From Eubacteriales bacterium (GTDB lineage Bacteria > Bacillota > Clostridia > Oscillospirales > CAG-272), in NCBI GenBank assembly GCA_045128275.1, contig JBGVRH010000063.1, positions 1,739 through 65,738 of the forward strand: 64,000 bases of DNA. Reading direction: 5' to 3'. Below are positions 2,936-32,379 of the stretch, piece after piece (the stretch's first letter is position 1; each line of letters begins with the position of its first letter). The notes beneath the pieces were generated by a model. That model worked only from the letters and a program-made list of their open reading frames with translations, was not told the origin of the DNA and did no database searches. Made by a program: the position numbers and the translations under genes.

Positions 2936-3150
2936 ATTGCAGTTTATCGGTCAGAGACCGATAAACTGCAATTAAGGTAATAGGTAATAGTGAATAGTGA
3001 AGAGGTGAGGAGGGAAACCTTCGGTTTCCTTCATTTCAATCAAAAATGGACAGATCCGAAGGATCTGCACCTCCACTCTTCACTTTTCACTCTTCACTCT
3101 TCACTCTTCACTTCAAATTTGGGTTTATCGAAGAGCGATAAACCAAAATT
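2936..3150. repeat. nested palindromic REP-like intergenic element
   Basis: Outer hairpins built on TTTATCG-N5-CGATAAA (2939-2976 and 3116-3147). Inner inverted arms AGTGAATAGTGAAGAGGTGAGG / CCTCCACTCTTCACTTTTCACT with CTCTTCA heptad runs. Two small central hairpins (GGAAACCTTCGGTTTCC, CAGATCCGAAGGATCTG). Confidence 0.6.
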
Positions 3151-3176
3151 TACCCCTCCACGAAAGGATTTTTTCT

Positions 3177-4598
3177 ATGGTCTTTTCCTCCACCATATTC
3201 CTCTTCGGGTTCCTCCCCCTCTCCCTTCTGATCTACTATATCATGCCGCTGAAGGGGCGGAATCTGGCTCTGTTCCTTTTGAGCCTGGTCTTCTACGGCT
3301 TCGGAGAGCCTACCTACATCCTGGTGATGCTCTTCTCGGTCACGGTGGCCTACCTCACGGGCTTCCCCATCGGCAAGTACCGCGAGAGCGCCCCCAAGAA
3401 GGCAAAATTCTGGCTGATCCTGTCGGTCTGCCTCAATTTGGGCATGCTGCTGTTCTTCAAGTATACCAACTTCTTCCTGGAGAACCTGGCCCTGATCCCC
3501 CCGCTGGCGGATGTGATCCACCCCATCGAGGGGCTGACCCTGCCCATCGGCATCAGCTTCTACACCTTCCAGATCATGTCCTACTCCATCGACCTCTATC
3601 GGGGCAGCACCGACACCCAACGGAGCTATATCTCCTTCGGCGCGTACGTGGCCCTTTTCCCCCAGCTCATCGCGGGCCCCATCGTCCGCTACCGCGACGT
3701 GGACGATCAGCTCATCACCCGCGAGCATTCGGTGGACAAGTTCTCTACGGGCGTCAGCCGCTTTACGGTGGGCTTTGCCAAGAAGATCCTGCTGGGCGAC
3801 TCCCTGGCCGCCGTCTACGCCTACCTCGGCACGGCCTACGCGGTAGAGCCCACCACCCTGACCGCCTGGCTCATGGTGCTGACCTACACCCTCCACATCT
3901 ACTTCGACTTCGCGGGCTACTCCGACATGGCCATTGGCCTTGGGCGGATGCTGGGCTTTGAGTTTTTGGAGAACTTCAACTATCCCTACCTGGCCTCCTC
4001 CATCACCGACTTCTGGCGGCGGTGGCACATCTCCCTGTCCTCCTGGTTCAGAGAGTACGTCTACATCCCCCTGGGCGGCAACCGCAAGGGCCTCTCCCGC
4101 CAGATCCTCAACATGGCGGTGGTGTGGTTCCTCACGGGCTTCTGGCACGGTGCGGCCTGGAACTTCATCCTGTGGGGCGTGTTCTACTTCGTGATCCTAG
4201 CCCTGGAAAAGCTTTTCCTTCTCAAGTGGTTCGAGAAGACCCCCGTCACCCGTGCCCTGGGCCATGTCTGGGCCCTGCTCCTCATCGGGATCGGCTGGAT
4301 GATCTTCGACCACACCGACCTCACCGAGGCCTTCGCCGTCATCGGCGGTCTCTTCGGCATCGGTACGGTGGGAGCCGCCTCCCCCGTGGTGGGCTACGAG
4401 CTGCTCCGCGCCCTGCCGCTCCTGGCCGTTTCGGTGATCGCCGCCACACCCTGGCCCGCGAGACTCTTTGCCAAGCTGGAGGCCAAGCGCCCCGCCGTGG
4501 CCTTCCTCCGTCCCGTCATGATCGCCGCCGCTCTGCTCCTGGCCGTGGCCTACATGGTCAGCGGCACCTTCAGCCCCTTCCTCTACTATATCTTCTAA
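3177..4598 (+). CDS. MBOAT-family membrane O-acyltransferase (AlgI/DltB-like)
   Basis: Polytopic membrane protein with ISFYTFQ...FPQLIAGPI...FWRRWHISLSSWFREYVYIPLGGNR, including the conserved MBOAT His region. Confidence 0.85.
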   Translation: MVFSSTIFLFGFLPLSLLIYYIMPLKGRNLALFLLSLVFYGFGEPTYILVMLFSVTVAYLTGFPIGKYRESAPKKAKFWLILSVCLNLGMLLFFKYTNFFLENLALIPPLADVIHPIEGLTLPIGISFYTFQIMSYSIDLYRGSTDTQRSYISFGAYVALFPQLIAGPIVRYRDVDDQLITREHSVDKFSTGVSRFTVGFAKKILLGDSLAAVYAYLGTAYAVEPTTLTAWLMVLTYTLHIYFDFAGYSDMAIGLGRMLGFEFLENFNYPYLASSITDFWRRWHISLSSWFREYVYIPLGGNRKGLSRQILNMAVVWFLTGFWHGAAWNFILWGVFYFVILALEKLFLLKWFEKTPVTRALGHVWALLLIGIGWMIFDHTDLTEAFAVIGGLFGIGTVGAASPVVGYELLRALPLLAVSVIAATPWPARLFAKLEAKRPAVAFLRPVMIAAALLLAVAYMVSGTFSPFLYYIF

Positions 4599-4607
4599 AG
4601 GATCTGT

Positions 4608-5819
4608 ATGAAAAAAACCATCAATACGACGGTCACCGTCCTGTTCCTCCTCCTGATCTTCGGGTTCGGAGTGGCGTTCTGGGCCGTGCCCGATAACGGC
4701 TTCTCTCCCGAGGAGAACCGCCCGCTCCAGACCTTCCCCACCTTCTCCGCCGACGGCTGGCTGGAGGGTAAGGTCTCCTCCCAGCTCATCACCTACTACT
4801 CGGATCAGTTCCCCCTCCGCGGCACCTGGCTCGACCTCCATGCCTTCGGAGAGCTGGGCGCGGGGCGCGGAGAGAGCAACGGAGTTCTGGTCGCCCCCAA
4901 CGGTCAGCTGGCGGTGCGCCGCTTTGACGCTTACCTCTCCCGCTTTGAGCGGTTGGAGGACACCGACTACTACAGCCCCGACCACGTACAGCGGGGCCTG
5001 AATGCCCTGATCGACCTGGACAAGGCCCTGTCCGAGCGAAAGATCCCCCTCTGCGTCCTCCTGGCCCCCCGCACCATCGACGTCACCGCCGCCGACTTCG
5101 GCTACCCCACAGAGCTGACCGACGGCCTGGACGAGACCATTCGCCATACCCTGGGGGATGCCGGGGTCAACAGCGTGGAGCTGCTGGAGACCTTCCGTGA
5201 GATGCACGAGGCGGGGGAGTACGTCTACTACCGCACCGACCACCACTGGACCACCAAGGGAGCCTACGTGGCCTATACCGCCGTGATGGAGTCCTGGGGC
5301 ATGGAGAAAGAGATCCTTCCCTACGATGCCTTTACGGTCCGTGAGATCCAAGGCTTCTACGGCACCACTCACTCCCGTACGGGGCTTTCCTGCATCCCCC
5401 CCGACACCCTGGAGATCTGGGAGGCCCCCGACGATAACCGCTACACCGTCTTCGAGCGCAGCGGCGATGATATCAAGACCATCATCGAGTCGGGCTTCAT
5501 CAGCGAAAAGTACCTGTCGGAGAAGGACAAATACAGCGCCTTCCTGGACGGCACCCACAACTGCCTCTTCATCATCGACAAGGAGGCCGCCGAGAGGGGT
5601 GAGTCCCGTCCCCGCCTGCTTCTGGCCCGTGACTCCTTCGCCAACAGTATGGTTCCCTTCCTGGCCCGCCACTTCGACATCTGCATGGTCAACCTCACGG
5701 GCAGCGTGGACATGACCGACCTCTCCTCCCTCTGTCGGGAATACGCCTGCGGCCGCGTGCTGGTGGTCTGCAACCGAGAAAACCTCATCACCTCGGACTG
5801 CCTGACCCGCGTGCGGTAA
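4608..5819 (+). CDS. DHHW-family protein (AlgX/AlgJ-like partner of the MBOAT enzyme)
   Basis: N-terminal TM helix and a literal YYRTDHHWTTKGAY DHHW motif. Starts 10 nt after the MBOAT stop. Confidence 0.8.
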   Translation: MKKTINTTVTVLFLLLIFGFGVAFWAVPDNGFSPEENRPLQTFPTFSADGWLEGKVSSQLITYYSDQFPLRGTWLDLHAFGELGAGRGESNGVLVAPNGQLAVRRFDAYLSRFERLEDTDYYSPDHVQRGLNALIDLDKALSERKIPLCVLLAPRTIDVTAADFGYPTELTDGLDETIRHTLGDAGVNSVELLETFREMHEAGEYVYYRTDHHWTTKGAYVAYTAVMESWGMEKEILPYDAFTVREIQGFYGTTHSRTGLSCIPPDTLEIWEAPDDNRYTVFERSGDDIKTIIESGFISEKYLSEKDKYSAFLDGTHNCLFIIDKEAAERGESRPRLLLARDSFANSMVPFLARHFDICMVNLTGSVDMTDLSSLCREYACGRVLVVCNRENLITSDCLTRVR

Positions 5820-5881
5820 GCCTGACCCATCTCCGACTCCCAAGCCGCTTTTTCCGTCAAGGGGAATTTTAAAAAATCCCC

Positions 5882-5910
5882 TTGACAAAGCGGAGGATCT
5901 ATGCTATAAT
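5882..5910 (+). promoter_or_regulatory. sigma-A-type promoter for tRNA-Pro
   Basis: TTGACA (5882-5887), 17-nt spacer, TATAAT (5905-5910), 10 nt upstream of the tRNA. Confidence 0.55.
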
Positions 5911-5920
5911 ACATAAGTTA

Positions 5921-5996
5921 CGAGGTGTAGCGCAGGTGGTAGCGCGCCAGTTTCGGGTACTGGAGGCCGCGAGTTCGAGTCCCGCCACTTCGACCA
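5921..5996 (+). tRNA. tRNA-Pro (anticodon CGG)
   Basis: Hand-folded cloverleaf: acceptor CGAGGTG/CACTTCG, anticodon stem CCAGT/ACTGG with loop TTCGGGT (CGG, G37), T-arm GAGTTCGAGTC, encoded CCA. Confidence 0.9.
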
Positions 5997-6059
5997 AACC
6001 TTACTAATTCGAACGTTCGAAATTCAAAACGAATTGTGAACGGATTAGTAAGGTTTTTT
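5997..6059 (+). terminator. hairpin plus T-run directly after tRNA-Pro (supplied by the islet)
   Basis: AACCTTACTAAT...ATTAGTAAGGTT stem followed by TTTTTC. Confidence 0.6.
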
Positions 6060-6261
6060 CTTTATAAAGAATGGCTTATTGCGACTATAACTCGCTAACT
6101 TGAACATCCTTGGAAATGATTGGTTTTGTGAGGTTTATATTTTTTGTTATGAATTTTTATATACTAGCTCATATTTGCCGCAATAGATGAAATCAATCGA
6201 TATTCAGTCTCCATGTTCAAAGAAGGCACGTGTAGTACGTGCCTTCTTTGAATATGGATTG

Positions 6262-7179
6262 TTATTTAGCGTTATTTTTCAAATATTTTATTAACCAAGT
6301 AATTATTGTAACAACAATTCCCGAACAACCAACTTCTATATATCTATTTGTCCAAGTAGTTTCACCTGTTTTATTATCAATAATGATTGCAATTATCAAT
6401 AAAACTGCTAACAATGAGATGGTGATCACCGATGCAATTATATTTTTTTTGCAGAAATACTTTTTGAATTTTTCGTTTTTTTGTTCTTTTAATTGTGCTT
6501 TCAATTCCTCGTATTCATCGGATTTGCACATTCTACGTCGAACTTGTTCAAAATCTTTCTTCCAATCCTCATTTAGAACTGCTAGTTGCTCTTCTGTAAC
6601 ATTCAATCCTAAATCAAGAAATTTATCAGTATGTCCCGATACTGTAGGATTTTTGGGTTTATACGGAGTATCCAAATAATGAAAAACGACTGAAACAAAG
6701 GATTCACCAACTTTTATAACAATTAAATCCGATGATGTATTGTGGAAAGCAATAAGTGAATCACCGGAAAAATTGGGGCCGACCATTGTTCCAATATGTC
6801 CTAACCCTTTGGATACCATTCCTACTTTTGAATGATATGTACCACCAATATAACTACTCACAGATAATACTTCTTGCGTTTCAATTAGTGTGGTTGACAA
6901 GGGCAAAAGAATAATGTATTTTTCCCCCTTACTTTCAATAACTGCACTATCGCGAGCTTCTAGTTTGATCCTTCTATTGTGGCGATTGTCCTGTTTCAAA
7001 GAAAATTTTTTGTTCTTGTCTTTTTCCTGTTCATCAACAAAAATATCGTGAGAAATTGTTGTCCACGCAAATTCACTAGAACATAAATTTATTGAATTCT
7101 CTTTAATATTACTTTCTTTAAACGGATATATACATAATCCTTTTCCCAACTCATTTAATATATCATGTTTACTTAACAT
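6262..7179 (-). CDS. dCTP deaminase/dUTPase-fold protein fused to a coiled-coil and two C-terminal TM helices
   Basis: Start trimmed to ATG 7177-7179 (GGAG RBS). MLSKHDILNEL...I.P plus GPNFSGDSLIAFHNTSSDLIVIKVGESFVSVVFHYL aligns without gaps by eye to E. coli Dcd [36 protein letters not shown]. C-terminal helices IIASVITISLLAVLLIIAIII and CSGIVVTIITWLIKYL. Confidence 0.7.
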   Translation of the reverse strand: MLSKHDILNELGKGLCIYPFKESNIKENSINLCSSEFAWTTISHDIFVDEQEKDKNKKFSLKQDNRHNRRIKLEARDSAVIESKGEKYIILLPLSTTLIETQEVLSVSSYIGGTYHSKVGMVSKGLGHIGTMVGPNFSGDSLIAFHNTSSDLIVIKVGESFVSVVFHYLDTPYKPKNPTVSGHTDKFLDLGLNVTEEQLAVLNEDWKKDFEQVRRRMCKSDEYEELKAQLKEQKNEKFKKYFCKKNIIASVITISLLAVLLIIAIIIDNKTGETTWTNRYIEVGCSGIVVTIITWLIKYLKNNAK

Positions 7180-7362
7180 ATTTACGCTCCATTCAAATAA
7201 AAATTGAATTACAGTTTCAATCACATGATTTTTGGCGGTTGAAAACCGATTGGATTCAGAGCAATGACTTTTTACCTCAACACCCTGTTCCTAATATTCG
7301 TCATTTTCAAGCATATTATAACACATTTTATATTAAATGTAAATATTAGTGAAGAAAATAAT

Positions 7363-7615
7363 CCCGATTTTTTAGCCTTTCGTTGTGTCCAGTGTAGCAT
7401 AGGTGTCTCGCAGATGTAAACGTAAAAAAATATCACCGAAAAAAGAAAATAGATATAGAACAGCCAGGTAGCGTTACCTGGTTTTTTTCTATATCCATAA
7501 GCAATATTTTTTTGTGTACTGAAAGCAGTCACGACCTCTCGTTGACATCTGCACACCTCACTCGGAATGAACGAGATTACCTCCCGACCTATGCTCCCCT
7601 GACCCTGCCGAAAGG
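7363..7615. repeat. ~250-bp structured module, copy 1 (second copy at 39021-39275)
   Basis: Colinear similarity to 39021-39275. Shared blocks: CCTTTCGT..GTGTCCAGTGTAGCATAG, a central hairpin plus T-run (7463-7487), GCAATATTTTTT.GTGTACT, and CTCTCGTTGACATCTGCACA.CTCACTCG..CTCCCGACCTATGCTCCC.GACCCTGCCGAAA. Confidence 0.7.
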
Positions 7616-7876
7616 CAAAATAAAAAATCAGGAGGTAATCCAAAATGAAAAAAGTAGTTTACTCAGTAACAAGGTATTCTGCAGGCACCAGATTGGAAAA
7701 ACATTGTAAATCAAGAGAAAATACTGTTTTCCCGCCACAGTCTTTGGCTTTGTTTTGTGGGTCATCGTAGCCGTTCAACCAGGGTTGAAACGGTTGGTTT
7801 CGGGGATCTCTTCAAACTGCCGGTAACGTTTCTCCTTTGCGCTCTCCAGGTGCAGTTTGATGCTCGGCTCTGCCGA

Positions 7877-7906
7877 GCGGAGTTCAGAGTCCCACCCCTT
7901 CGACCA
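7877..7906 (+). repeat. degenerate duplicate of the tRNA-Pro 3' end (att-like scar)
   Basis: GCGGAGTTCAGAGTCCCACCCCTTCGACCA versus the tRNA GCGAGTTCGAGTCCCGCCACTTCGACCA. Confidence 0.65.
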
Positions 7907-7915
7907 TAAAAAAGA

Positions 7916-7954
7916 CAGGCGCGCAGCTCATCCCGAGCTGCGCGCCTGCTTTTC
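7916..7954 (+). terminator. GC-rich hairpin terminator (probably the original tRNA-Pro terminator)
   Basis: CAGGCGCGCAGCTC-ATCC-GAGCTGCGCGCCTG followed by CTTTTCT. Confidence 0.6.
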
Positions 7955-8005
7955 TAATTTTTTATTTACCAAAGACAGTCGGATACGTCAATTTTTCCGA
8001 TCCGA

Positions 8006-8770
8006 TCAATCCGACAACGCCTGGTAAGGAATGACCTTGTCAACCTCGTCCATGGAGGAGAAGAACGCCACGAAACCAAAATCAACGGTGTCGCCGTCCT
8101 CAGCCGAATTTGCCAGACCGAAGCGCAGATATCCCAGGTAGCCGGCTTCGGCATCGTAGCAGAAGGCAAGATCGGAGATATCGATCGTCACATACGCCCA
8201 GTCACCGTCGGTGGCACGGAACGAATAGTCCACGTTGTCACCGTTTCCATGGGCCGCATGACCCTCGGTACCCATGTACAGATTCAGACCTTGGTTGTAC
8301 TTGGAACGGTACTTAATAACCAGAATATTATCCACGGGCGTGTCTTCTCGGATCAGGTAGAAGTAGGGATCCCATACGTTATCGGAACCGTAGCGGAACA
8401 GAGCGGTCAGGCTGCCGTCCTCGTTCAACGTCAGACCGCCGAAATCGCTCCAGTCCTGCTGTTCGTTGTTGGCGGCCTTCAGAATATCCTCTGTTGCCAG
8501 GATCGTGGTGGCGTATTGTCCCACCTCTTCCAGGGTCGGGTGGTAGATCTCCTCTTTTGCCTCGGTCGTTTCCTCTTCGGTGGTGGCCTCCTCGGTGGGT
8601 GCCTCAGTGGTAGCCTCTTCGGTGGGTGCCTCGGTTTCGGGGGCTTCAGTGGTGGCCTCCTCGGTGGGTGCCTCGGTAACAGTGGAGTCGGTGGTCTCGG
8701 GAGCTTGGTCGCATGCTGCCATGCACAGCAGAACGGACAGGGCAAGGGCCGCAATGATCCAATGTTTCAT
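8006..8770 (-). CDS. lipoprotein with TEAPTEEAT-type linker repeats, function unknown
   Basis: Start trimmed to MKHWIIAALALSVLLCMAAC (lipobox) with an AGGTGAAAAG RBS. Acidic Thr/Glu/Ala/Pro repeats, then a globular C-terminal domain. Confidence 0.7.
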   Translation of the reverse strand: MKHWIIAALALSVLLCMAACDQAPETTDSTVTEAPTEEATTEAPETEAPTEEATTEAPTEEATTEEETTEAKEEIYHPTLEEVGQYATTILATEDILKAANNEQQDWSDFGGLTLNEDGSLTALFRYGSDNVWDPYFYLIREDTPVDNILVIKYRSKYNQGLNLYMGTEGHAAHGNGDNVDYSFRATDGDWAYVTIDISDLAFCYDAEAGYLGYLRFGLANSAEDGDTVDFGFVAFFSSMDEVDKVIPYQALSD

Positions 8771-9238
8771 ACTTTTCACCTCGCAATTGCTTATAGTGGT
8801 TTCATCATACCATACTTGGAACACAAACACAACCGTTTTGCGATCTTCACACTTTACCGAACTCATCCGCAAGCACGGTCTCACCGTCTTCCTCTGTATG
8901 ATATCCGATATTATAGCATAAAACATACATTTTTTTCAAGTGGTTTTTGTAAAGAATACTGACTATATATTCCGTATGTGCGAATCATTTCGCCGCCCAC
9001 CTTTCGTGCGCAGTCAACGGTCTTTTTCTCTTTTCCCGGCCCTTCGTTCCAAGCTGCTATGGCCCCCAACGCTTGTAATGCGGGCAGTATATCCGTCTGT
9101 GACGGCTCGATCCGTCATACGTATTGACTTTTCGTGGGAAAAATGCTATACTGTATTTGGAAAATCCAATATCGTTTCTGTTGATACGATATTGGAACAG
9201 CCTTGTCAATCAAACGCGCAAGGAAAGGAGCAATCCCC

Positions 9239-10387: not shown

Positions 10388-10416
10388 GCAAAGAAATGCC
10401 CCGCACGAGGCGGGGC
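10388..10416 (-). terminator. rho-independent terminator of the XRE-TPR gene
   Basis: GCCCCGCCTCGTGCGGGGC hairpin followed by ATTTCTTT on the minus strand, just after the stop codon. Confidence 0.6.
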
Positions 10417-10421
10417 AAGGA

Positions 10422-11288
10422 TCATTTGCTCAATTGTTCAATTGTTTTTCGGCATCTCTCGATTGTTTTTGTAAGATTTTTCTGCAAGGATTTGTTTTCG
10501 GGGATGGGATTATTTTCAAGGAAATTTTCCGAAAGTGTAATGGCTAACGAATAGACTTTCGAGGCTTGTTTCTTTTCTCCAGTCAAATTATGCATATTTC
10601 CGCAAAGTACAATCGAATGGATCAGTTGCCGTTGAAATTGCGAAACATTATCAGTATAACACTTTAAAGCCTTTTCATACTCTTTACGATTCTCATATAT
10701 GCGACCAAACGCAGCTTCTTTATTAAATCCAATTACCGAAGGCAACGATTCAGATAATGCTGCTGCTTTTTCAACTTCGCCCATTTCGCAATATAACTTG
10801 ATTAGCCATTCTGTTGCTTCGATCAAAACGCTTAAATCCTTACAATAAGACAATATCAGCCTGCCTGCACGCTCACATTCTTCAAATATAGCATTTCGTT
10901 CAGCATCGTTTACGGTGTCTCCGTCTGCCAGCAAACATTCGCCGCACGAAAGCAATTCCGAAAGTAATCTTATATCTCCCGGATAGGTTCTAAGGGCTTC
11001 TTTCAATAACGCATATTCATCCTTATATGACTCCTGAGTTGTTGCCTTATCAATCAATGTTTGGACTTCATCAACATCCATCTTTTCTTCTACTCCAAAC
11101 AAAACATCTGTACTGACCCCAAAGAAATGTGCAATGGGCACAACTTGTGAAATGTCGGGCATTCCGATATTATTCTCCCATTTAGAAATTGCTTGAGCAG
11201 TAATATTTAAGTTTTCTGCAAGTTGTTCTTGTGTGAGATTGCGAGAACAACGAAGTTCACGAATTATGTTACCTATTGTTTTTGCCAT
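10422..11288 (-). CDS. XRE-family HTH plus TPR-like regulator (RRNPP/Rgg/PlcR-like architecture)
   Basis: MAKTIGNIIRELRCSRNLTQEQLAENLNITAQAISKWENN is a classic XRE HTH. The ~220-aa helical C-terminal part has TPR-like periodicity. GGAGG RBS. The gene is strongly AT-rich compared with its flanks. Confidence 0.8.
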   Translation of the reverse strand: MAKTIGNIIRELRCSRNLTQEQLAENLNITAQAISKWENNIGMPDISQVVPIAHFFGVSTDVLFGVEEKMDVDEVQTLIDKATTQESYKDEYALLKEALRTYPGDIRLLSELLSCGECLLADGDTVNDAERNAIFEECERAGRLILSYCKDLSVLIEATEWLIKLYCEMGEVEKAAALSESLPSVIGFNKEAAFGRIYENRKEYEKALKCYTDNVSQFQRQLIHSIVLCGNMHNLTGEKKQASKVYSLAITLSENFLENNPIPENKSLQKNLTKTIERCRKTIEQLSK

Positions 11289-11552
11289 AAAAGATCCTCC
11301 TAAAATCAAGTGACGAAATTAAGCGCTTTCTTTCGTTGTCCTTATTATATCACTAATTTTTATTATTGAAAAGCGACCCAAAAGAAATAGCGCTCAACTG
11401 TGCGTTGACAAAAGACATAATAGCAACTTCGATGTAACTATCTTTCTACTATTCTCGACGCTTGCGTCTGGGGCAAGCATAGCGCGTGGCAGTCTACGCA
11501 CCATCGGGCAGAAGCCCGAACCCACTATCCGCAGAGGAACGGCACGCAAAAG

Positions 11553-17676: not shown

Positions 17677-18597
17677 CTATAACGATTTTGGCAATCCAAT
17701 GCGGTATGCGGTGGGCGTGATGCCGTACAGCCGTTTGAAGGTCTTGGTAAAGAAGCTGTGAGAGGCGAATCCGCACCGTGCGGCGATCTCGGACAGGCTG
17801 AGGTCACTCCCCGAAAGCAGGGCGGTGGCCCGCTCCATGCGGCAGGAGATCTGGTACTCCTTAGGGGTCTTTCCCGTATAGCCCTTGAAGCGGCGGATAA
17901 AGCTGCTCTGCTCCATATAGAAACGGGCAGCCAGCTCGGAGACTCGCAGCTCCTCTGCACACCTCTCGGACAGAACGGCAGTTGCCTCTCGCACCCATGC
18001 GGGATATTGCTTGGGAGAGGGTTCCCCTCCGTAATACTCCTCCAAGGCCTCGGTGAGCAACCGCGTGATCAGCAGGTTGACCGTCAGCTCTCCCATGGGT
18101 GAAAGATTTCCCAGCTCTTTGGTAATACGGTCCAGAAGCTCGGTATAGTGCCCCGCTTCCCGTGGGCGGATCACGGTAAAGCCCCCCTGATTCCAAAGGC
18201 TTTCGAAATACTCGCAGTACTCCCCTGCGATATTGACAAAGCAGAACCGCCAGTCGTCGTTGAGGCTGCGGGTCAGGGCGGGCAGGGCACTGCTGACAAA
18301 GACCATATCCCCTCGCTCCACCCGCCTGGTCTCACCGCGGTAGGTGATCTCTCCCGCGCCGCTGACCGTCACGAAAAAGCAGTAGGCGTCAAAGCCCTCG
18401 CGGTAGTAGGAAAAGCCCCGTCCCTCGCGATACTTGCCTGTTGATCGGGCCACAAACGGCAGCTCTGACCCTTGCGCGATCTTACCGTGAAGAACGTTCA
18501 CCGGGGCCTCAATACTGTCCATGCTCAAGGCCTCTCGGGGCGCGGTTTTCTGCCCGTCGGCATCCGGGACAGACCGTTTGTTCTCTTTCTCATCCAT
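17677..18597 (-). CDS. AraC-family transcriptional regulator
   Basis: Cupin-like N-terminal part plus a C-terminal AraC HTH (SLSEIAARCGFASHSFFTKTFKRLYGITPTAYR). Start trimmed to MDEKENK (AAAAGGAG RBS). Confidence 0.85.
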   Translation of the reverse strand: MDEKENKRSVPDADGQKTAPREALSMDSIEAPVNVLHGKIAQGSELPFVARSTGKYREGRGFSYYREGFDAYCFFVTVSGAGEITYRGETRRVERGDMVFVSSALPALTRSLNDDWRFCFVNIAGEYCEYFESLWNQGGFTVIRPREAGHYTELLDRITKELGNLSPMGELTVNLLITRLLTEALEEYYGGEPSPKQYPAWVREATAVLSERCAEELRVSELAARFYMEQSSFIRRFKGYTGKTPKEYQISCRMERATALLSGSDLSLSEIAARCGFASHSFFTKTFKRLYGITPTAYRIGLPKSL

Positions 18598-18794
18598 AGG
18601 CGCACGCTCCTTTTGAGGAATTTGTCCGTAGTTGCGGACGGTCAGAAGGGAGATCACGACTTTATTGTAGCACAAAAATACTGTTCTGTCAACAGAATCG
18701 AGCCATTCGGGATGCAGCGTGAAGCTTTTGGTCTCCTGGGATTACGGGCACGAAACAAAAGGCCTTCGTATAGTTGACCCGATACGAAAGCTTT

Positions 18795-19120
18795 GGGTGA
18801 TGAAATCGTCATGCACGATGACCTCCGATCTTTGATCGGTAACTGAAATGTTTTTCCATAATCCTACGTGGAACGGTCCCGATGAAAATCGGGGCTGTTC
18901 TGTTTATACGGGGTGGAAAGAGAATTTCGATATCGAAAATGGATCGTGTGAAACGAGCCGTATGAAAGATTCTGAGGGCACAGAGAGGCACTTGGAAACG
19001 CCTATAAGCCTTACGGGAATAGGAAAAAAAGAAGAACCTAAGACAAACAACAGGCTATGCCATGTGTTCGTTTTAGGTTCTTATTGGCGGAGATGGGGGA
19101 ATGCCATTCATGTACACAAC
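18795..19120. repeat. junction module, copy A (others at ~32105-32294 and ~39800-40080)
   Basis: Shared blocks with copies B and F: GAAATCGTCATG, hairpin GGAAC.GTCCCGATGAAA.TCGGGGCTGTT, ACGAGCCGTA, hairpin AAGAACCTAAGACAAACA...TGTTCGTTTTAGGTTCTT, then TGGCGGAGATGG. Confidence 0.7.
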
Positions 19121-19139
19121 ACCCTGTACTCCTTAAAAT
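19024..19139 (-). ncRNA. candidate ~115-nt transcript ending in a tRNA-Ser acceptor-like 3' segment (or att scar)
   Basis: Minus strand has TTGACA (19169-19174), 17 nt, TACAAT (19146-19151). Then ...GGAGTACAGGGTGTTGTGTACATGAATGGCATTCCCCCATCTCCGCCA, the AAGAACCTAA hairpin and a U-run. Confidence 0.35.
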
Positions 19140-19205
19140 GGCTATATTGTATCACAGAAATCCTTCCCTGTCAACAGATTCTTCCCGCCGTCTCCCCGCG
19201 GGGAA

Positions 19206-19925
19206 TCACTCTTCCGCTTGCCTTTTCTTCCGCATCGCCGCCGCGATCACGTCGTTCACATTGTCTTGCTTGATGGTAGCAGGATACTTCTTGACCATTT
19301 CAGCAAGCGCTGCCCTCGCAGCCCGTTCATCCTCGCTGAGCTCCACGAACAGGGCAGAGAGATCCTCGCAGGCAAGGATCCTCTCCAAAAGCCCCCGCGC
19401 GTGATCCGCCACGTTGTCCCAGCTGCCGTACAATTTCCGTACAGCCACGTCGATCATTTCATAGGTCAACGGCTTGCCGGCCATCTGTTGCTCGTACACA
19501 ATACCCGCTATGTCCGACAGATCCTTCTTGTACTGTCTTCCGGATACCAGCTTCATGGCTACAAGATACTCTGATCTGACGGTACGGATCTGGAGGACAC
19601 CTGAAAAGGTTTTGTAATACTCGGAGTACTGTACGATCTTCGGGGTATACGAGGCTGTCTTTTTGAAATCATCATTGACCCAACCGTTGGGCAAGCCGAA
19701 CTTATCACCCACGGCGTTGATTGCCTCTTTCATGATCGCGGGGGAATCGTAGCTAGCGTCAATATCGTAGGAAGAGGCACGAAACCCGTAATTGATCAGC
19801 ACCGACGCGCCCCCAACCAGGATCATTTCCGCAGGTGCTCCGTGCCCTCTTTTCCGATACTCCTTGGCGAGTTCTTTCAGGTAACCTTCCAAATTTTCCT
19901 TCGTAAAAGGAATATCAATAGACAT
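19206..19925 (-). CDS. nucleotidyltransferase-fold protein (AbiEii/DUF6036-like), putative toxin
   Basis: ILVGGASVLINYGFRASSYDIDASY resembles the GG.A...R.T.D.D NTase motif of AbiEii-type proteins. The ATG at 19925 (GTGAGG RBS) overlaps the stop of the upstream HTH gene by 11 nt. Confidence 0.65.
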   Translation of the reverse strand: MSIDIPFTKENLEGYLKELAKEYRKRGHGAPAEMILVGGASVLINYGFRASSYDIDASYDSPAIMKEAINAVGDKFGLPNGWVNDDFKKTASYTPKIVQYSEYYKTFSGVLQIRTVRSEYLVAMKLVSGRQYKKDLSDIAGIVYEQQMAGKPLTYEMIDVAVRKLYGSWDNVADHARGLLERILACEDLSALFVELSEDERAARAALAEMVKKYPATIKQDNVNDVIAAAMRKKRQAEE

Positions 19926-20481
19926 TTCGGACCTCACTTTCTACAATGTTGAATCGCAAAAATTCGGGGATCGCTTCCCTCTTGCATTTTTCCTTCGCGT
20001 CCGTATCCCCGTCCAATTTTGCCAGAAGCAGAACGTCTCTTGGATACAGCGGCTCCTTCAACGAATGGGTGCGGATCTCATCATATCTGGTGCAAAGCGG
20101 AATGCCGTGGATCCTGCTCAGATAGTCCACCATCGCCAGCAGATAGAAGGCTTCGGGATACCATCTCTTGCTCCAGTATTTGCTGATTTCATCCTTTTGC
20201 AAGGTCTCAACAATGAAATCCAGTTCATCCCGATCCTTCACAAGATGGCACACGTTACTTTTGAAAATCTCAAAATCCGGCCGCGGCTCCATAGAGTCCG
20301 TCAGAAGCTCCTCCATGGAAACGTTCAGGATCTTTGACAGCTTATATACTGTTTCCGCCGAGCATTTCTCCAGCCTTGTTTTGCCACGCACCACCTCAGA
20401 CAATGTTGTGTACGGAATACCGCTGAGCTTCGCGCACTGGTACATGGATATGTTTCTCTCTTTCAGCATGGCGTCAAGCAT
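19915..20481 (-). CDS. XRE-family HTH protein, putative antitoxin/regulator
   Basis: MLKERNISMYQCAKLSGIPYTTLSEVVRGKTRLEKCSAETVYKLSKILNVSMEELL is an XRE HTH. It carries a ~120-aa C-terminal domain and is translationally coupled to the NTase gene. Confidence 0.7.
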   Translation of the reverse strand: MLDAMLKERNISMYQCAKLSGIPYTTLSEVVRGKTRLEKCSAETVYKLSKILNVSMEELLTDSMEPRPDFEIFKSNVCHLVKDRDELDFIVETLQKDEISKYWSKRWYPEAFYLLAMVDYLSRIHGIPLCTRYDEIRTHSLKEPLYPRDVLLLAKLDGDTDAKEKCKREAIPEFLRFNIVESEVRNVY

Positions 20482-20587
20482 GGAATTCGCCTCCTTTCCT
20501 TGATATTATTATAACGCTTTTCCGTTATATTGTCAATAGTATCGGCGGATTTTGAGAAAATTATTGTTATGTGGGAAAAAAGTATAG

Positions 20588-20692
20588 AAAAAAACCCGAA
20601 CCGAACAGTAATGTATTCGATTCAGGTCCTTTTTGTGGCGGAGATGGGGGGAAGGCCGATCATGTACACAACAGTTCCTTCTCCCCTTTGGT
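20588..20692 (-). ncRNA. diverged copy of the promoter / tRNA-Ser-like 3' motif / terminator module
   Basis: Minus strand has TTGACG (20722-20727), 17 nt, TATAGT (20699-20704). Then ...GGGGAGAAGGAACTGTTGTGTACATGATCGGCCTTCCCCCCATCTCCGCCA, hairpin CCTGAATCGAA...TTCGGTTCGGG and T7. Confidence 0.35.
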
Positions 20693-20920
20693 AACCATAC
20701 TATAGCAGAAAACACGGGTCGCGTCAATGATCCCCCATGCGTTACCTATACCTGTACGAAGGCGGTAGGCTTCATGTGATATTGAGAGCAAAGCTCCTTT
20801 AACAGGATACGGTCTTCATTCCAATTTTTTTCGGTTCTGTATTGCATTTCCCCGTTCCCTATGCTATAATAAAGGGAGAGATCAAGCTTCAAAAGTCAAA
20901 TTTCAACGAAGGAGTAGCGC

Positions 20921-23900
20921 ATGGATACCCAAAAGCTAAATCGTTGGGCAGAGCTGCTGCTGGACACGGGAAAACGGAATAATCTGGTCAATTTCAAGGA
21001 TACCAAAACCTCGTCCGTGGAGGTTCTTTTTCCCAATACCGCCACGCTGTTTTCCAAAGCAGAGAATTCGCCTGTGTTTGAGGTATATGATCCCAAGCTG
21101 GCTGATGATAAGGATGAGCTTGAGGAGACGGACGCGTCTTTGCCTGCCGTGTTGGAGAACGTGATCACCGACGGCGCGGAGCCCATCGCGGCTCCCGAGG
21201 AGGTTTCGGACACCGAGGATCCCGCCCGAGCCGCGTATCTCCGAGAGCACATCGCAAAGGTACGTAAGCAAAGCCAGATCCTACTCTATAATTCCGCCGC
21301 CAACCCCTTGATCGCTCTTAAGAGCATCCATAAAAGAGCCGCCTCGGCTATTGAGGAAACCGGTGTCAACGTCGCTTACATGGCCTTCGGCTTTATCCAT
21401 TGGAAGGAATCCGCCGATTCCCAGCCGATTTTCCGCGCGCCCATCCTCCTGGCGCCCGTTCTTTTTGAAAACGAGTCCGCTATTGAGCCCTATCAGATCC
21501 GTATGACCGAGGATGACGTCATTGTCAACCCCACCTTCAGCTTCAAGCTCCATGCCGAATACAACGTCACGCTCCCGCCCTTGGGCGAGGAATCCTTTGA
21601 GGAATACATCGCGAAGGTGTCCGATACCGTAACTAAGCTGGGTTGGTCGGTCTCGACCGAGTGCAAGATCGGTATTTTCTCCTTCTTGAAGATCAATATG
21701 TATCAGGATCTCAAGGAAAACGCCGAGACCATTCTGGGAAACGACAACGTCAGACGCCTGTTGGGAGAACCCGTGGAGGATAGAGAGGGCGATACCGAAA
21801 GCGGAACCGCGCCTGTGATCCACAACATACTCGTGGATCTTCACAACGTGGTAGACGCGGATTCCAGCCAATTGGAAGCCATCCGCATGGCCAAGGAAGG
21901 CAAAAGCTTTGTCCTGCAGGGTCCTCCCGGCACCGGTAAGAGCCAGACGATCACCAACATACTCGCCGAGTGTCTCAGCGACGGCAAGAAGGTCCTGTTC
22001 GTCTCCGAAAAGCTGGCGGCTTTGAACGTCGTGTACGAAAAACTCAAGCAGGCGGGACTGGAGGAGTTCTGTCTGGAGCTGCACAGCCACAAGGCCAATA
22101 AAAAGGACGTGATCGCCGATCTTTGCCAAACCATCCGAAAAGCGCCAACTCGGGTCAAGGAGGAAGCGGCGGCGGAGATCTCCGCTAAGATCAAAGCGCA
22201 AAAGCAGCTGGACACCTATGCTGCCGAGCTGCACAAGCCCCGCCCCGTGGTGGGTAAGTCGCTGTTCCAATTGATCAGCGCCCACGCCGCCCTCAATCGC
22301 GCCGAAGATATCGACTATATAATCCCCGAAGTGGATACCAAGGATGAGAACTATCTGAACGAGCTCTGCGCTCTGCTGGATCAGTATTCCTCCTTTATTT
22401 CCACCATCGGCTATGACTACCGAAGCCACGCATGGCTGGGCTTTTGCAAAAACGATCTTTCGCAAAGAGCCAGACTGACCCTGCAAAACGATCTTGAGAT
22501 CGCTGAAAAGACCTTGCGTGCGCTTTCGGCAGTCGTTCAGAGCTTGAAGGAAGCTTACGGTCTGCCTATCGACGACCTCCGGGCGCTGTACCGTTACCAT
22601 GAATTTCTTCAATTCTACAGTGAATCCGACGTCATCACTCCCTCGCTGCTCTCGGCTTCGGCGGTTCAGACCGTACAGGAGGCACTGTCCCGACTGATCC
22701 CCGCAGCGCGCGATATCGTCACTGCCCGCGAAGCCTTATCCGCGGAATACGATTCCGAGTTATACGCCCTCGACGGCGCGGATCTCCATAAGCAGCTGAC
22801 CCGCAGGTTTGACAGCATCTTTTCCCGCCTGTTCAATGGGGATTACCGCCGCATCATCCAGGACATCCGACTCTGCCGTAAGGACGGCAAAAAGGTATCC
22901 TATGCCGAAGCCGTCCGCGTCACCAGGTTGCTCGCCGACTATCGGAGCAGTCTGGAGGAGTTCGAGACCGTCGCGCCTGCCGTGGCCTCCCACCTCGGCC
23001 CCGCTTACGTTGGCGTTGACAGTCCTTGGGAGCGGATCTCCGCGGAGGTGACTCGGCTTTCCGAGCTACTCCCTCGTATAGGCGATCTCGGTTCCCTGCC
23101 GACGGTTCCCATCGCTCTGCACCGAGAGAATCAGGAGCGCGTTGCCGCCGCTGTCCAAAGCATATCCGAGATCCGCACCCGCGACGGAGCCATACTGGAG
23201 GCTGTCAGCGGTTGCTTCGATCCCCTCTTCTGGGATCTGTACGGGACCCCCTTTGAAGCCGCGATCCGCAAGTGCGCGGAGTGTCCCAATAAAATGGATA
23301 CTCTGGAGAACTGGTGCCGTTTCTACGATCTGCTGGTGCGCCTCCACGGTCTGAACGCGCTCACCTTTATCCACTACCTCATTGATCACGGTCTGGCCTC
23401 CCATCACGTCTCGGACATCTACCGCCGCGCGTATTACAGCCAGCAGATCGAATCCATCATCTACATGGAGCCGTCCCTCGCGGGATTCTCCCGCATCGCG
23501 CAGGACAAGGCTGTCAGAACCTTTGCCGAAAAGGACGAGCATCAATTCGGCATCAGCCGGGCCCGCATCAAGGCCGAGCTGTCGTCCATGCGTCCTCCTT
23601 TGGATATGATGGCCGCGGGCAGTGCTACCTCGATCCTGTTGCGCGAGGGAGAGAAAAAGCGAAAGCAAAAGAGCATCCGCACGCTGCTCTCCGAGATCGG
23701 CGATCTGATCCAGGTAATCAAGCCTTGCTTCCTTATGTCCCCGCTGAGTGTCAGTACGTTTCTCAGCGCGTCGGGTATCCGCTTTGACGTGATCGTTTTT
23801 GACGAGGCATCCCAGATCTTTCCCCAGGATGCCGTTGGCGCGATCTACCGCGGCAAACAGCTCATCGTAGTGGGTGACTCCCGTCAGATGCCCCCCAGCA

Positions 23901-25600: not shown

Positions 25601-25705
25601 CTTTGCGGCTGTTTCGCGAGACGCGGGATCGAGGCACATATCTACATCGTATATACATAGGGTAATTACATATAGGAAAAAGCACCGCGCGCGGTGCTTT
25701 TCTGT

Positions 25706-25738
25706 TAGCGGAGATGGAGATAACGGTCATGTACACAG
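25706..25738. repeat. degenerate copy of the GCGGAGATGG...CATGTACACA core (site D)
   Basis: TAGCGGAGATGGAGATAACGGTCATGTACACAG preceded by hairpin GCACCGCGCGCGGTGC plus T-run. Confidence 0.5.
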
Positions 25739-25870
25739 CCAAAACTCTTTCGCGGTATAACCTACGGCATCATAAAACCGCGGCCATCCCCCATCCCACG
25801 GACAGGAGGACAGCCACGGTCTCATACCCAAACGGCCGATCATTCTCGGTCATTCACATAGAGCGGTCCA

Positions 25871-30370: not shown

Positions 30371-30393
30371 GGTGGTCTCCTTTCGGGATTGAG

Positions 30394-31494
30394 TCAACGG
30401 ATAAATATGGACGAAGGGTAGAGGCGCCCGATCAGCTGTCCGACACCGAGGCAGGTCTCCGCCACGTCCTTCAGGGCAAAAAAGCCTTGCGTGTAGACGT
30501 CCTGCTTGATGTATCCCCTCTGCCGCCCCTCCATGAGGTAGCGTCGGTCCGCCAAGGAGCACTCGTGGCCGATCACGAAGGTGGCGAGGGGACGGGCGAG
30601 CCGCCGCTCGATCTTTTCAATGGCGGCGCAGGCAATGTGGGTCACGCCGCTGGATATGTAGAGGCAATCCACGTCCCCTCCGTCAAAGCAACCGATCAAC
30701 CGCTGTGCCAGGGTGGAGGGGGCGATCCGCGCCGTGGGGTCCAGCTCGATATGAAAAATCTGCGCCTCGGGGAAAAGCTCCCTCGCCTTGTCACAGACAC
30801 CCTTCACCCTCTGCTCGGATACCTGAGCGCTGCTGTTGTGGCGGGTGCAGATCACACCCAGACTGCGAATATCCACCCCGCAAGAGGCAATGAGCGAGGC
30901 GGCGCGCTCTCCCTCACCGTAGCCATCGGGACCAACGAAGACGGTGTGGGCATGGGCGCGGAACCAATCCGGCGTCATGTAGTCTTGGGTATCGTTGAAG
31001 ATCACGGTAGGAATGGAGGCTTTTTCCAAAAAACCGCGGCAGGCCTGACCGCCTACGGGGAACAGGATAAGCCCATCCGAGTTATCCGACTCCAGGGCTG
31101 AGAACAGCGAAAGGCTGTCGGGTTCAGTTTGGGGAAAGCTGTGGTAGCTGTAGCGGAGCTGAATGGGGATCCCCTCCTTCTCCAGCACAGCCTTGCTCTT
31201 TTCAATGCCCGCTACAGCCTCCCGCCAGAAGTACAGGGGACGGGAGGGGATGACCACGCTGATCCGCAGGGGACGGCGGGGGGAAGAGGACTCGGAGACT
31301 CCCTCGGAAAGCCCATCTCCCGACAGAGTCAATCCATACTTCTCGGCCTCCCGCCGAACCATATCCACGGTACTCCTCGAAAAGCTGAAGGGATTGGCAA
31401 GGATCTTATAAATGCTGGACTCCGACACCCCCGTATTCCGTGAAATACGGCGGATGGCATCACGCTTGCTTTTGCTGCTGGGGTGCTCTGTCAT
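30394..31494 (-). CDS. LacI-like regulator (N-terminal HTH plus periplasmic-binding-protein-type sugar-binding domain)
   Basis: RDAIRRISRNTGVSESSIYKILAN HTH followed by a PBP1-like alpha/beta domain. Start trimmed to MTEHPSS. The stop lies 24 nt upstream of the start of the 1499-aa gene. Confidence 0.7.
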   Translation of the reverse strand: MTEHPSSKSKRDAIRRISRNTGVSESSIYKILANPFSFSRSTVDMVRREAEKYGLTLSGDGLSEGVSESSSPRRPLRISVVIPSRPLYFWREAVAGIEKSKAVLEKEGIPIQLRYSYHSFPQTEPDSLSLFSALESDNSDGLILFPVGGQACRGFLEKASIPTVIFNDTQDYMTPDWFRAHAHTVFVGPDGYGEGERAASLIASCGVDIRSLGVICTRHNSSAQVSEQRVKGVCDKARELFPEAQIFHIELDPTARIAPSTLAQRLIGCFDGGDVDCLYISSGVTHIACAAIEKIERRLARPLATFVIGHECSLADRRYLMEGRQRGYIKQDVYTQGFFALKDVAETCLGVGQLIGRLYPSSIFIR

Positions 31495-31731
31495 AGGATA
31501 CTCTTTCCGGCTCGCAGCCATAGAACTGTTTTTATGATACCATACAGTTGGCGGAAAATAAATATACAGATTCCACAATTTTTCGGGGTGACTTTTGGGC
31601 AAGTAACAGAGGATCGGGAGGGTCCGCCTTCCTTCTGCTTCAAGCGGTTAAAACGGCAGCGGGCCGGCCGAAAGTCCAAAAAGGGGCCGGGTCAAATGCT
31701 TTGCAAAAAAGCAAATGACCCAGTCCCTTGG

Positions 31732-31765
31732 TCGCGGAGATGGGGAATGACGGTCACGTTCAACG
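31732..31765. repeat. degenerate copy of the GCGGAGATGG core (site E)
   Basis: TCGCGGAGATGGGGAATGACGGTCACGTTCAACG, related to the site A/B core. Confidence 0.4.
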
Positions 31766-32104
31766 GTATAGATCCCCACATCCGAATCATCGACTTAAGA
31801 AGGTTCGTGAATATCTGTGTCAAAGAATGGGTGTTATGGAAAACACCGAGAAAGACGGCGTAGCCGGGGAAACGTCCCGGTCTATCGCCGTTGTCCCCAT
31901 TCGTACCGCACAGCCAAATAAAAAGGCAACCATTGAAATGCAACTCGAAGATCTGCAGGTCAAATTTAACGAAAGTCCCACCGCGGAACAGTTAAAGGTT
32001 GTTTTGAGCATCTTGCTGGATGCAAATCAACCGGTATGTTAAAATCATTCACACTTCGCTTTGATCGATCCGCATATTTTGACCGGGCTCATGTACGTGG
32101 GCTC

Positions 32105-32313: not shown

Positions 32314-32379
32314 GGCCATATTATATCACAGAAATCCTTCCCTGTCAACAGATTCTTCCCACCGTCGCCCCGCGGGGAA

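Follow-up and report, generated by a model that had tools for sequence, protein, structure and literature searches.

Dcd, the dCTP deaminase of core metabolism, is a soluble enzyme of ~190 amino acids (aa) that carries the glutamate Glu138 (E145 in Methanocaldococcus jannaschii), and it shares its beta jelly-roll with the bifunctional DCD-DUT enzymes of M. jannaschii, Mycobacterium tuberculosis and Bacillus halodurans. The archaeal Dcd-like dUTPases (Thermococcus pacificus, PDB 8Y1W; P45, 9LN0/9LN3), which are also soluble and are ~155 aa long, are without the deaminase glutamate (LTLMLFN) and keep both the aspartate of VDPGWDG and the RSS of motif II. Here we describe a membrane-anchored protein of this fold, encoded at positions 6262..7179 on the minus strand of a stretch of 64,000 nucleotides (nt) from a Eubacteriales bacterium (assembly GCA_045128275.1, contig JBGVRH010000063.1, positions 1,739 to 65,738; the whole stretch is referred to as the window). 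Compared with Dcd, the window protein is longer (305 aa), with ~130 extra residues that make up a linker and transmembrane (TM) segments, and its gene appears to be mobile. The protein is almost certainly not a dCTP deaminase. We consider the odds to be even that it is instead a single-gene anti-phage abortive-infection candidate in which a head that senses pyrimidine deoxynucleoside triphosphates (dNTPs) is coupled to a membrane effector. We refer to the family as DCD-TM and to its two subtypes, defined below, as type G (to which the window protein belongs) and type D.

Immunity through nucleotide depletion, by dCTP deaminases or dGTPases, has so far been treated as starvation brought about by a single enzyme. 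The anti-phage dCTP deaminase (Tal et al., 10.1101/2021.04.26.441389; DcdV, later AvcD, 10.1101/2021.03.31.437871; dCTPase, PDLC02373, in PADLOC) concerns the same dC-to-dU axis as the Dcd fold, whereas it is itself a soluble and catalytically active protein composed of an unrelated zinc-dependent CDA domain and a P-loop kinase-like domain. The dUTP that the defence deaminase produces is removed by housekeeping dUTPase, and defensive dGTPases occur within type I restriction-modification (R-M) operons (10.1101/2021.04.26.441389). In the Kongming system KomB, which has a nucleotide-pyrophosphatase fold, senses deaminated dITP, and the KomB-KomC effector is switched on (PMC13454610, 10.1101/2024.12.20.629578). 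The logic that we propose for DCD-TM would be the pyrimidine counterpart of Kongming, by functional analogy only. Abortive-infection effectors that join a sensor domain to TM helices include PycTM of Pycsar, Cap15 and the 2TM effectors of CBASS, and Cam1 of type III CRISPR. These, like the window protein, consist of a small cytoplasmic nucleotide-binding domain and one to a few TM helices, and oligomer-driven membrane disruption is what we propose here too; their sensor domains, however, have unrelated folds and respond to cyclic nucleotides made by an adjacent cyclase, whereas type G genes have no generator beside them. Thus, the window protein has the architecture of a sensor-TM effector (a cytoplasmic domain followed by a C-terminal TM part) but lacks the adjacent signal-generating enzyme.

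The head domain and its membrane anchor

Residues 1-176 (6652..7179, minus strand) make up the head, a predicted beta jelly-roll of the Dcd/dUTPase fold. That the protein has this fold had been proposed in an earlier note, made by eye from the sequence, and is borne out by profile and structure searches. In particular, PF22769 (DCD) matches residues 2-167 in Pfam with 35.9 bits against a cutoff of 27. The dCTP deaminase equivalog TIGR02274 scores 40 bits, which is under its cutoff of 92.8 bits, PF00692 (dUTPase) gives no match to the window protein at E <= 10, and a Pfam search found no CDA domain (dCMP_cyt_deam_1) in it. An AlphaFold2 (AF2) model built on the family alignment (mean predicted local distance difference test, pLDDT, 89.8; predicted template-modelling score, pTM, 0.76) has a beta core that extends to about residue 168 and helices from residue 184 on. 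With this model Foldseek recovers the DCD-DUT enzymes of M. tuberculosis, M. jannaschii and B. halodurans, Escherichia coli Dcd (1XS1) and the archaeal dUTPases, at E values of 1e-12 to 1e-8 and with target TM-scores of up to 0.85; the archaeal dUTPases are the best PDB matches (target TM-score 0.81-0.85), and canonical trimeric dUTPases rank lower (E ~1e-5). Consistent with this, a profile of 40 family members searched against the PDB finds 8Y1W and 9LN0 at E 4e-6 and also matches the DCD-DUT enzyme of B. halodurans (4XJC). Note that the alignment to Dcd had first been described as gapless over ~200 aa; it is so over the core motifs only, because around residues 40-75 family members contain extra sequence that the Pfam profile lacks.

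To place individual residues we aligned the family with the single sequence of E. coli Dcd (192 of 193 residues identical to 1XS1) by hhalign. The probability of this alignment is just 2% and it was used for register only; the register agrees with those of Pfam, the PDB profile search and Foldseek. The segment VGPNFSGDSLIAFHN (residues 133-147) pairs with residues 127-141 of E. coli Dcd, such that G134 occupies the position of D128 and A144 that of the catalytic E138, and both residues fall at the corresponding positions in a HMMER alignment to 4XJC. (The numbering of E138 is confirmed by PDB titles such as 'E138A' and 'E138D'.) Both substitutions read by eye in the earlier note, that of the catalytic glutamate by alanine and that of the aspartate of IDPGW by glycine, are therefore upheld. 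Dcd residues R110, R115 and R126 become His, Met and Met in this register and Ser111 is retained as Ser117, while the spacing of the motifs is shared (GRSS...IDPGWSG....E.YN in Dcd, YHSK...VGPNFSG....A.HN in the window protein). Set against the archaeal Dcd-like dUTPases, the window protein has glycine for the aspartate, H-S-K for R-S-S, and a membrane anchor.

Conservation was counted on 266 members of at least 225 aa aligned to the family hidden Markov model (HMM). None of the 266 has a glutamate at the E138 position, where 258 have A (191), S (30), T (16), P (13), I (4) or L (4), and the D128 position is occupied by G in 164, D in 87 and N in 12. Invariant or nearly so across the 266 are E103, G113, H116, S117, K/R118, G125, T131, P135, G139 and N147; when the alignment of 40 homologues is taken together with the 266, the (near-)invariant residues of the head read K26-E27-N28-S29-x-N31-L32, E103, G113, H116-S117-K118, G125, T131-M132-x-G134-P135, G139 and H146-N147. 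Four positions co-vary strictly and divide the family into two subtypes, type G with E27-M132-G134-T179 (the exact quartet is present in 138 members, and the window protein is one of this type) and type D with G27-T132-D134-N179. Because at all four positions type D bears the closer resemblance to canonical Dcd and Dut, type G is probably derived. That the pocket has been rebuilt under strong purifying selection argues for a specific ligand rather than for decay.

Whether the head might still be an enzyme bears directly on these residues. It could be a membrane-tethered pyrimidine dNTP pyrophosphatase that depletes or sanitises dNTP (possibly phage-modified) during infection, in which the co-varying Glu27 replaces the lost motif-III aspartate in type G and the TM part only localises or regulates the enzyme. 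The motif-III aspartate is catalytic in dUTPases and needed for the hydrolysis of dUTP; it is kept in type D, and the strict swap between G27/D134 and E27/G134 looks like a relocated carboxylate. Moreover, the motif-II serine and the basic residue beside it are invariant (H-S-K/R), the closest solved relatives are the archaeal dUTPases 8Y1W and 9LN0, themselves without the glutamate, and nucleotide-depleting enzymes are established defence effectors (10.1101/2021.04.26.441389). The window protein, however, is without the aspartate and without the three arginines of the Dcd triphosphate site, PF00692 fails to match it, and type D usually adjoins a canonical dUTPase, beside which a second dUTPase would be redundant. 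On balance we regard an enzymatic head as unlikely. That the head is a nucleotide-binding but non-catalytic sensor is the interpretation towards which we lean, by a little. Consistent with such a role, the entry titles of PDB 1XS4 and 2J4Q describe E138A E. coli Dcd with dCTP or dTTP bound, which makes plausible a glutamate-less pocket that binds a nucleotide without converting it.

The core is followed by the motif N177-P-T179-x-S-G182-H183-x-D185-K186 (6622..6651, minus strand), defined by conservation counts. The PDB alignment ends at ...LEGPAKN(P) of 8Y1W, which places this motif at the position of the C-terminal arm that closes over the nucleotide. The C-terminal arm of Dcd and of dUTPases closes over the bound nucleotide, and the motif may thus serve as a nucleotide lid. 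Motif V of the trimeric dUTPases (RGxxGFGSTG) is not present in the window protein, which has the post-core motif in its place.

Behind this motif lies a charged helical linker (residues 187-245; 6445..6621, minus strand) with a conserved D205-W206-K207, as judged from the AF2 model (helices 184-241), composition (15 K/R and 13 D/E in residues 186-245) and conservation. Two predicted TM helices follow. TM1 (residues 246-268; 6376..6444, minus strand) coincides with AF2 helix 244-271 and reaches a Kyte-Doolittle maximum of 3.06 over 19 residues, and the weaker TM2 (residues 282-299; 6283..6336, minus strand) corresponds to AF2 helix 288-302 with a Kyte-Doolittle value of 1.5; in every 19-residue frame beginning before residue 220 the value is at most 1.36. 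The loop that leads into TM2, D268...W276..R279...S286-G287, is conserved in the close subfamily. Lysines and arginines flank both helices on the side of the head, which is predicted to be cytoplasmic, and a C-terminal TM hairpin with both its ends inside fits this distribution. Accordingly, the two-helix anchor described earlier holds, and what had been called a coiled coil is better described as a charged helical linker. Among the 266 aligned members, 97% have at least one hydrophobic segment after residue 170, and the TM sequences differ between clades.

The family is sizeable. A word-indexed search returned 237 relatives, nearly all of them ~300 aa and full length, and an exhaustive profile search returned 984 clusters at 50% identity with E <= 1e-3, 501 of them with E <= 1e-10. 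The distribution is patchy: type G occurs in Clostridia and in a gammaproteobacterium, and type D in Bacilli, Methanosarcinaceae and Cyanobacteria. We entertained the idea that the same head might be fused to other effectors as a modular sensor, and rejected it because the best 150 representatives are all 110-366 aa long. The few relatives that bear a name (in Clostridium botulinum, C. perfringens and C. tyrobutyricum) are called 'deoxycytidine deaminase' or 'dCTP deaminase domain-containing protein'. (One homologue, at 6046-6939 of locus L005 from an Aminipila sp. metagenome-assembled genome (MAG), has a stop after 13 codons, and the database protein, P0065, of 284 aa, starts further in; either this copy is a pseudogene or its translation begins at a different codon.)

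The comparison with PADLOC suggested in the earlier note turned up nothing for the window protein: PADLOC v2 gave no real match for it, for its type-D and type-G relatives or for the partner dUTPases described below, and holds no model for either subtype or for the partner dUTPase. In the searchable full-text literature we found no description of the DCD-TM architecture or of its linkage to dCTP deaminases; the unvalidated predictions of DefensePredictor include a dUTPase domain, but in a different, multi-domain system. Abortive-infection effectors consisting of a sensor and TM helices are known as a kind; a sensor of the Dcd/dUTPase fold, and the operonic tie of this family to nucleotide-depletion immunity, appear to be new.

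Genomic company of the two subtypes

The gene is probably cargo of defence islands or other mobile elements, as the contexts of its homologues indicate. All-against-all clustering of the neighbours in 34 loci (~25 of them type G) revealed no universal partner of type G, and no dUTPase or dCTPase-like gene was found in the type G loci examined or in the 64-kb window. What recurs are R-M genes, other defence genes and the borders of mobile elements. Thus, a C. botulinum locus reads HNH, the type G gene, a 1,329-aa nSTAND NTPase, UvrD-S24, HipA, and Mrr or type I R-M; in another Clostridium the type G gene lies near OLD-TOPRIM, ResIII, an N6_N4 methyltransferase and SNF2; and in C. perfringens it is convergent with the gene for a 723-aa HATPase_c_3 protein. 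Elsewhere the neighbours are a MmeI-type enzyme, a FRG protein together with HsdR, Fic together with a serine recombinase, or a resolvase. In Ruminococcus the type G gene sits within type I R-M operons (hsdS fragment, type G gene, hsdM, hsdS, hsdR), a placement like that of the defensive dGTPases. PrrC, an anticodon nuclease reported to respond to dTTP, is likewise encoded by an abortive-infection gene in a type I R-M locus, EcoprrI. The comparison with PrrC concerns only placement (type G lying between hsdS and hsdM) and nucleotide responsiveness, as PrrC is an unrelated cytoplasmic protein with an ABC-ATPase-like and a nuclease part. (Note that one Ruminococcus contig, LBCK01000005.1, holds two copies of a block with a type G gene and genes for type I R-M in opposite orientation, at 18439-35122 and 81293-97976, and that all neighbouring open reading frames (ORFs) are common to both copies, L020 and L021.)

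With respect to mobile elements, a type G gene closes a small integrase-scaffold-capsid element that resembles a phage satellite, another adjoins a gene for a Xis-like HTH_17 protein, another adjoins PIN_12 and an integrase, and yet another ends a block like that of a prophage or an integrative and conjugative element (ICE) before an ORC/CDC6-like ATPase. Close homologues (63-71% identity, one at 50%) lie next to tRNA genes as well: L001 and L122 have tRNA-Ser(tga), L002 has tRNA-Pro(tgg) 74 nt upstream, L003 has tRNA-Pro(cgg) and L004 has tRNA-Thr. Some type G genes, that of the window included, are solitary insertions among housekeeping genes. Homologues thus do lie in defence or mobile contexts, as had been expected, among them R-M operons, nSTAND and OLD genes and satellite-like and integrative elements. 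The idea that the gene is phage-borne was rejected: 50,697 phage genomes contain no member of this family (tblastn finds only true dUTPases there), and IMG/VR yields 5 matches in 2.9 million viral contigs. In two loci (L028, 6318-9591, and L029) the type G gene lies directly behind a pair of genes for an AAA ATPase and a Peptidase_S8 (subtilase) protein and before HTH_17/HTH_36; the pair may itself be a defence module.

The company of type D differs. Scanning with the type-D alignment gave 59 loci, of which one (L025) had already been fetched, and the counts that follow are for the 58 new loci, L059-L116, which come from Cyanobacteria, Bacillota, Methanosarcinaceae, Desulfobacterota, Elusimicrobia and Riflebacteria. 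In 49 of the 58 the DCD-TM gene is in an operon with a canonical dUTPase and/or a CDA-family deaminase: 31 have Dut, four Dut and a small CDA-like protein, four both dCTPase and Dut, and ten dCTPase. In the other nine loci DCD-TM is alone. A canonical trimeric dUTPase is encoded immediately downstream on the same strand in 39 of the 58. These partner dUTPases score 118-121 bits to PF00692 with all five motifs intact and are 51-99% identical across phyla (median 65%), and the pairwise distances among them correlate with those among the DCD heads (r = 0.60, a descriptive value, as the pairs are not independent). That the dUTPases are so similar across phyla, and that the two sets of distances run together, argues that DCD-TM and Dut travel as a cassette. 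An adjacent protein of 438-817 aa with a CDA zinc-deaminase domain is encoded in 14 of the 58; six of the 14 were scored against the PADLOC dCTPase model and reach 266-507 bits, and the other eight were assigned as dCTPase by means of an HMM built from the same 14 proteins. All three genes are contiguous in L093 (2445-3761, 4001-4951, 4973-5401), L102, L103 (DCD-TM 3950-4954, Dut 4924-5391, dCTPase 5336-7081) and L109. The earlier note had set this protein apart from the defence deaminases of the zinc-dependent CDA family; the folds are indeed distinct, but the type-D branch shares operons with those very deaminases and with a dedicated dUTPase. Type-D copies are also found on conjugative Bacillus plasmids, where they adjoin SIR2 and lie near cas3, type-D relatives adjoin CHAT and PIN_8 genes, and some copies on Bacillales chromosomes and plasmids are solitary.

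These operons could mean that DCD-TM does not act on its own and is instead an accessory or regulator of immunity by dC-to-dU depletion, tethering, gating or reporting on a deaminase or dUTPase encoded elsewhere in the genome, perhaps with the DCD-TM trimer stacked on the trimer of its partner. Dcd enzymes are hexamers of stacked trimers, in line with such an arrangement, as are the 49 of 58 operonic type-D loci and the correlation between dUTPase and DCD-head distances. We nonetheless judge a non-autonomous role to be unlikely, given that neither the type G loci examined nor the 64-kb window hold a dUTPase or dCTPase-like gene, that type G travels as one gene carrying its own putative promoter and terminator, and that some type-D copies in Bacillales are solitary.

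Eleven cyanobacterial loci encode a 507-aa thymidylate-synthase-like protein with PterinBD-DUF4346 upstream of DCD-TM and Dut (for example at 2409-3929 in L066), and a partly overlapping set of Nostocales type has thyX, a canonical Dcd of 198 aa, adk and RNase PH nearby (for example L074, 2699-3418, 5302-5898 on the minus strand and 6839-7459). A small CDA-like protein is encoded downstream in four loci. This arrangement may be housekeeping synteny or a module for defence by nucleotide modification. Homologues in nucleotide-metabolism operons with intact catalytic residues had been named as the context that would speak against a defence role; cyanobacterial type D is the one place where this is approached, and there the glutamate is absent and the TM part is kept. 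This synteny with thyX, dcd, dut, adk and the thymidylate-synthase-like gene nevertheless lends itself to a reading outside defence, to which we give the least credence of the alternatives considered here: that the gene, carried on islets, encodes an addiction toxin, a membrane protein for superinfection exclusion or a housekeeping regulator of pyrimidine deoxynucleotides. Several type G loci with metabolic neighbours only would also agree with it, as would the borders of mobile elements, where addiction and exclusion genes occur too. The recurrence of the family in R-M operons and defence islands runs counter to all three versions; patchy distribution across domains, deviant guanine-plus-cytosine (GC) content and variable insertion sites are hard to reconcile with housekeeping, and the scarcity of the family in phages (5 matches in the 2.9 million viral contigs, none in the 50,697 phage genomes) with exclusion by a phage-borne protein.

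A possible sensor-effector mechanism

We propose that the head, like all enzymes of its fold, would trimerise and so form three pockets between subunits, and that a pyrimidine deoxynucleotide, be it dUTP, dCTP, dTTP or a phage-modified analogue, would be bound in these pockets but not deaminated. Binding of the ligand, or its loss, would order or release the post-core arm, which runs straight into the linker; the three pairs of TM helices would then repack, the membrane would be permeabilised or depolarised, and phage replication would be aborted. Because the linker and TM helices come directly after the motif at the position of the arm, coupling between ligand and membrane could be simple. 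A ligand on the dC/dU axis is favoured by the operons that type D forms with a dedicated dUTPase and the anti-phage dCTP deaminase, and all genomic links of the family lead to the axis of dCTP, dUTP and dUMP. In those operons the deaminase might act as generator, DCD-TM as receptor and the dUTPase as eraser, and the type G protein would combine receptor and effector and need no partner encoded alongside it.

Several observations weigh against this proposal, and we hold its last step, abortive infection by membrane disruption, only tentatively. Replacement of R110, R115 and R126 of the Dcd triphosphate site means that binding of nucleotides by the head is not assured. TM2 is only weakly hydrophobic (1.5) and members from Bacillales have one TM helix or tail anchor, so that the TM part may be a mere anchor. 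Type G genes have no signal-generating enzyme next to them, in about one-third of type G loci the neighbours are ordinary metabolic genes, the defence neighbours were tabulated by hand and without a background comparison, and the cyanobacterial synteny with thyX, dcd and adk may reflect housekeeping rather than defence in that clade.

A bolder form of the proposal, which we think unlikely to be right, is that bacteria and archaea use dUTP as an immune alarm nucleotide and that this family is its receptor-effector. The catalytically disabled trimer would bind dUTP, or sense the ratio of dCTP to dUTP, and would open or disrupt the membrane through its TM helices. In the three-gene operon the CDA-type dCTP deaminase would be the generator, DCD-TM the receptor-effector, and the dUTPase an eraser and brake on autoimmunity; a solitary type G protein would read the changes in dUTP or dCTP that accompany phage takeover of nucleotide metabolism. 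Were this so, the known dCTP-deaminase defence would signal as well as starve, as a pyrimidine counterpart of dITP signalling in Kongming.

Taken more generally, the family suggests an unrecognised membrane arm of pyrimidine-nucleotide immunity and perhaps an immune signal of a new, non-cyclic kind. A sensor role would add the housekeeping dUTPase/Dcd fold to the enzyme folds repurposed as immune sensors, and would correct names such as 'deoxycytidine deaminase' on hundreds of proteins that do not deaminate. The family is compact (~300 aa, one gene with its own putative promoter) and is thus amenable to direct testing.

The tRNA-Pro islet and neighbouring features

The gene has 305 codons and a stop codon, begins with ATG at 7179 and encodes the N-terminus MLSKHD. 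Because the N-termini of all 40 aligned homologues are MLSK or MLSR, this ATG is preferred over an upstream GTG at 7224. A Shine-Dalgarno-like GGAG (7187..7190, minus strand) lies 7 nt 5' of the ATG, and a promoter-like TTTACA-17-TATAAT with an extended -10 TG (7315..7343, minus strand) matches the consensus at 11 of 12 positions, a call made by consensus match only. An inverted repeat with arms of up to 22 nt and 95% complementarity (6211..6257) begins 4 nt past the stop codon and is likely a transcription terminator, a call made on structure only, as the minus strand has no T-run there. Judged from these sequence features, the gene looks like a self-contained transcription unit.

The gene lies in an AT-rich islet of 1.8 kb (5997..7782) in which it is the sole recognisable gene. 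The left border is formed by a tRNA-Pro(cgg) gene (5921..5996, plus strand; ARAGORN, and Rfam tRNA with 58.9 bits). GC content is 31.4% in the gene and 33.6% over 5997-7782, compared with 56-60% in the flanks (~58% in the genome). The flanking gene at 4608-5819 was used to fetch ten related loci from Clostridia MAGs (69-76% amino-acid identity), two of which, L049 and L052, have the same tRNA-Pro. In both, a homologue of window positions 7783-7906, present once or twice, begins within ~40 nt behind the tRNA-Pro, and a homologue of the window from 9223 onwards comes next. Because L049 and L052 are without the islet behind the same tRNA-Pro, we infer that 5997-7782 is an insertion. The earlier description of an AT-rich islet in tRNA-Pro with a single gene as cargo is thus supported by composition, gene content and empty sites, with the amendment that the islet adjoins the 3' end of the tRNA gene and does not lie inside it.

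The right border is formed by an element of ~125 nt (7783..7906, plus strand), delimited by blastn and alignment to L049 and L052, which ends in a sequence like the 3' end of tRNA-Pro (7880-7906). The last 20 nt of tRNA-Pro (5977-5996) recur there at 7887-7906 with 18 of 20 identical. The islet therefore has the features by which tRNA islets are recognised, namely abnormal composition, a tRNA border, a direct repeat of the tRNA 3' end and absence from relatives. As the att duplication of this particular islet, however, the repeat is weakened, since its distal copy lies in an element that relatives without the islet possess (at 7493-7628 and 7677-7783 in L052, and at 3097-3217 and 3224-3330 in L049). 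The distal tRNA-like repeat, in an older element, is probably a scar of earlier integrations at tRNA-Pro. Repeated integration may have left the element as a whole behind as a scar, or it may be a small RNA; ARAGORN makes no tRNA call in it and Rfam gives no match. Behind it, an inverted-repeat scan finds a GC-rich terminator hairpin (7916..7948).

DNA similarity to homologous loci ends at the boundaries of the coding sequence (CDS). Neither Pfam nor tblastn with the Xis-like neighbour of the closest homologue detected a remnant of an integrase or Xis in 7180-7900, the other ORFs within 7275-7906 have no Pfam match, and the tRNA is the only RNA element that Rfam finds in the islet. A match to RT-17 at 7601-7654 (24.8 bits against a gathering score of 40.4) was taken as chance. 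It overlaps an ORF of 41 codons in the right part of the islet (7645-7770, plus strand), which has a strong Shine-Dalgarno sequence, AGGAGG, and no Pfam match.

Beyond the islet, window positions 7915-9222 form a second stretch that has no counterpart in L049 and L052. An ORF at 8006-8926 (minus strand) encodes a 306-aa protein that has a hydrophobic stretch around residues 50-70 and contains repeats rich in Thr, Glu, Ala and Pro (TEAPTEEATTEAP...). Further on, window positions 10400-11400 are an AT-rich patch (36-41% GC) and possibly a second small acquired islet; the ORF at 10422-11309 (minus strand) encodes a protein whose N-terminus resembles, by eye, a helix-turn-helix of XRE type and whose remainder is helical-repeat-like.

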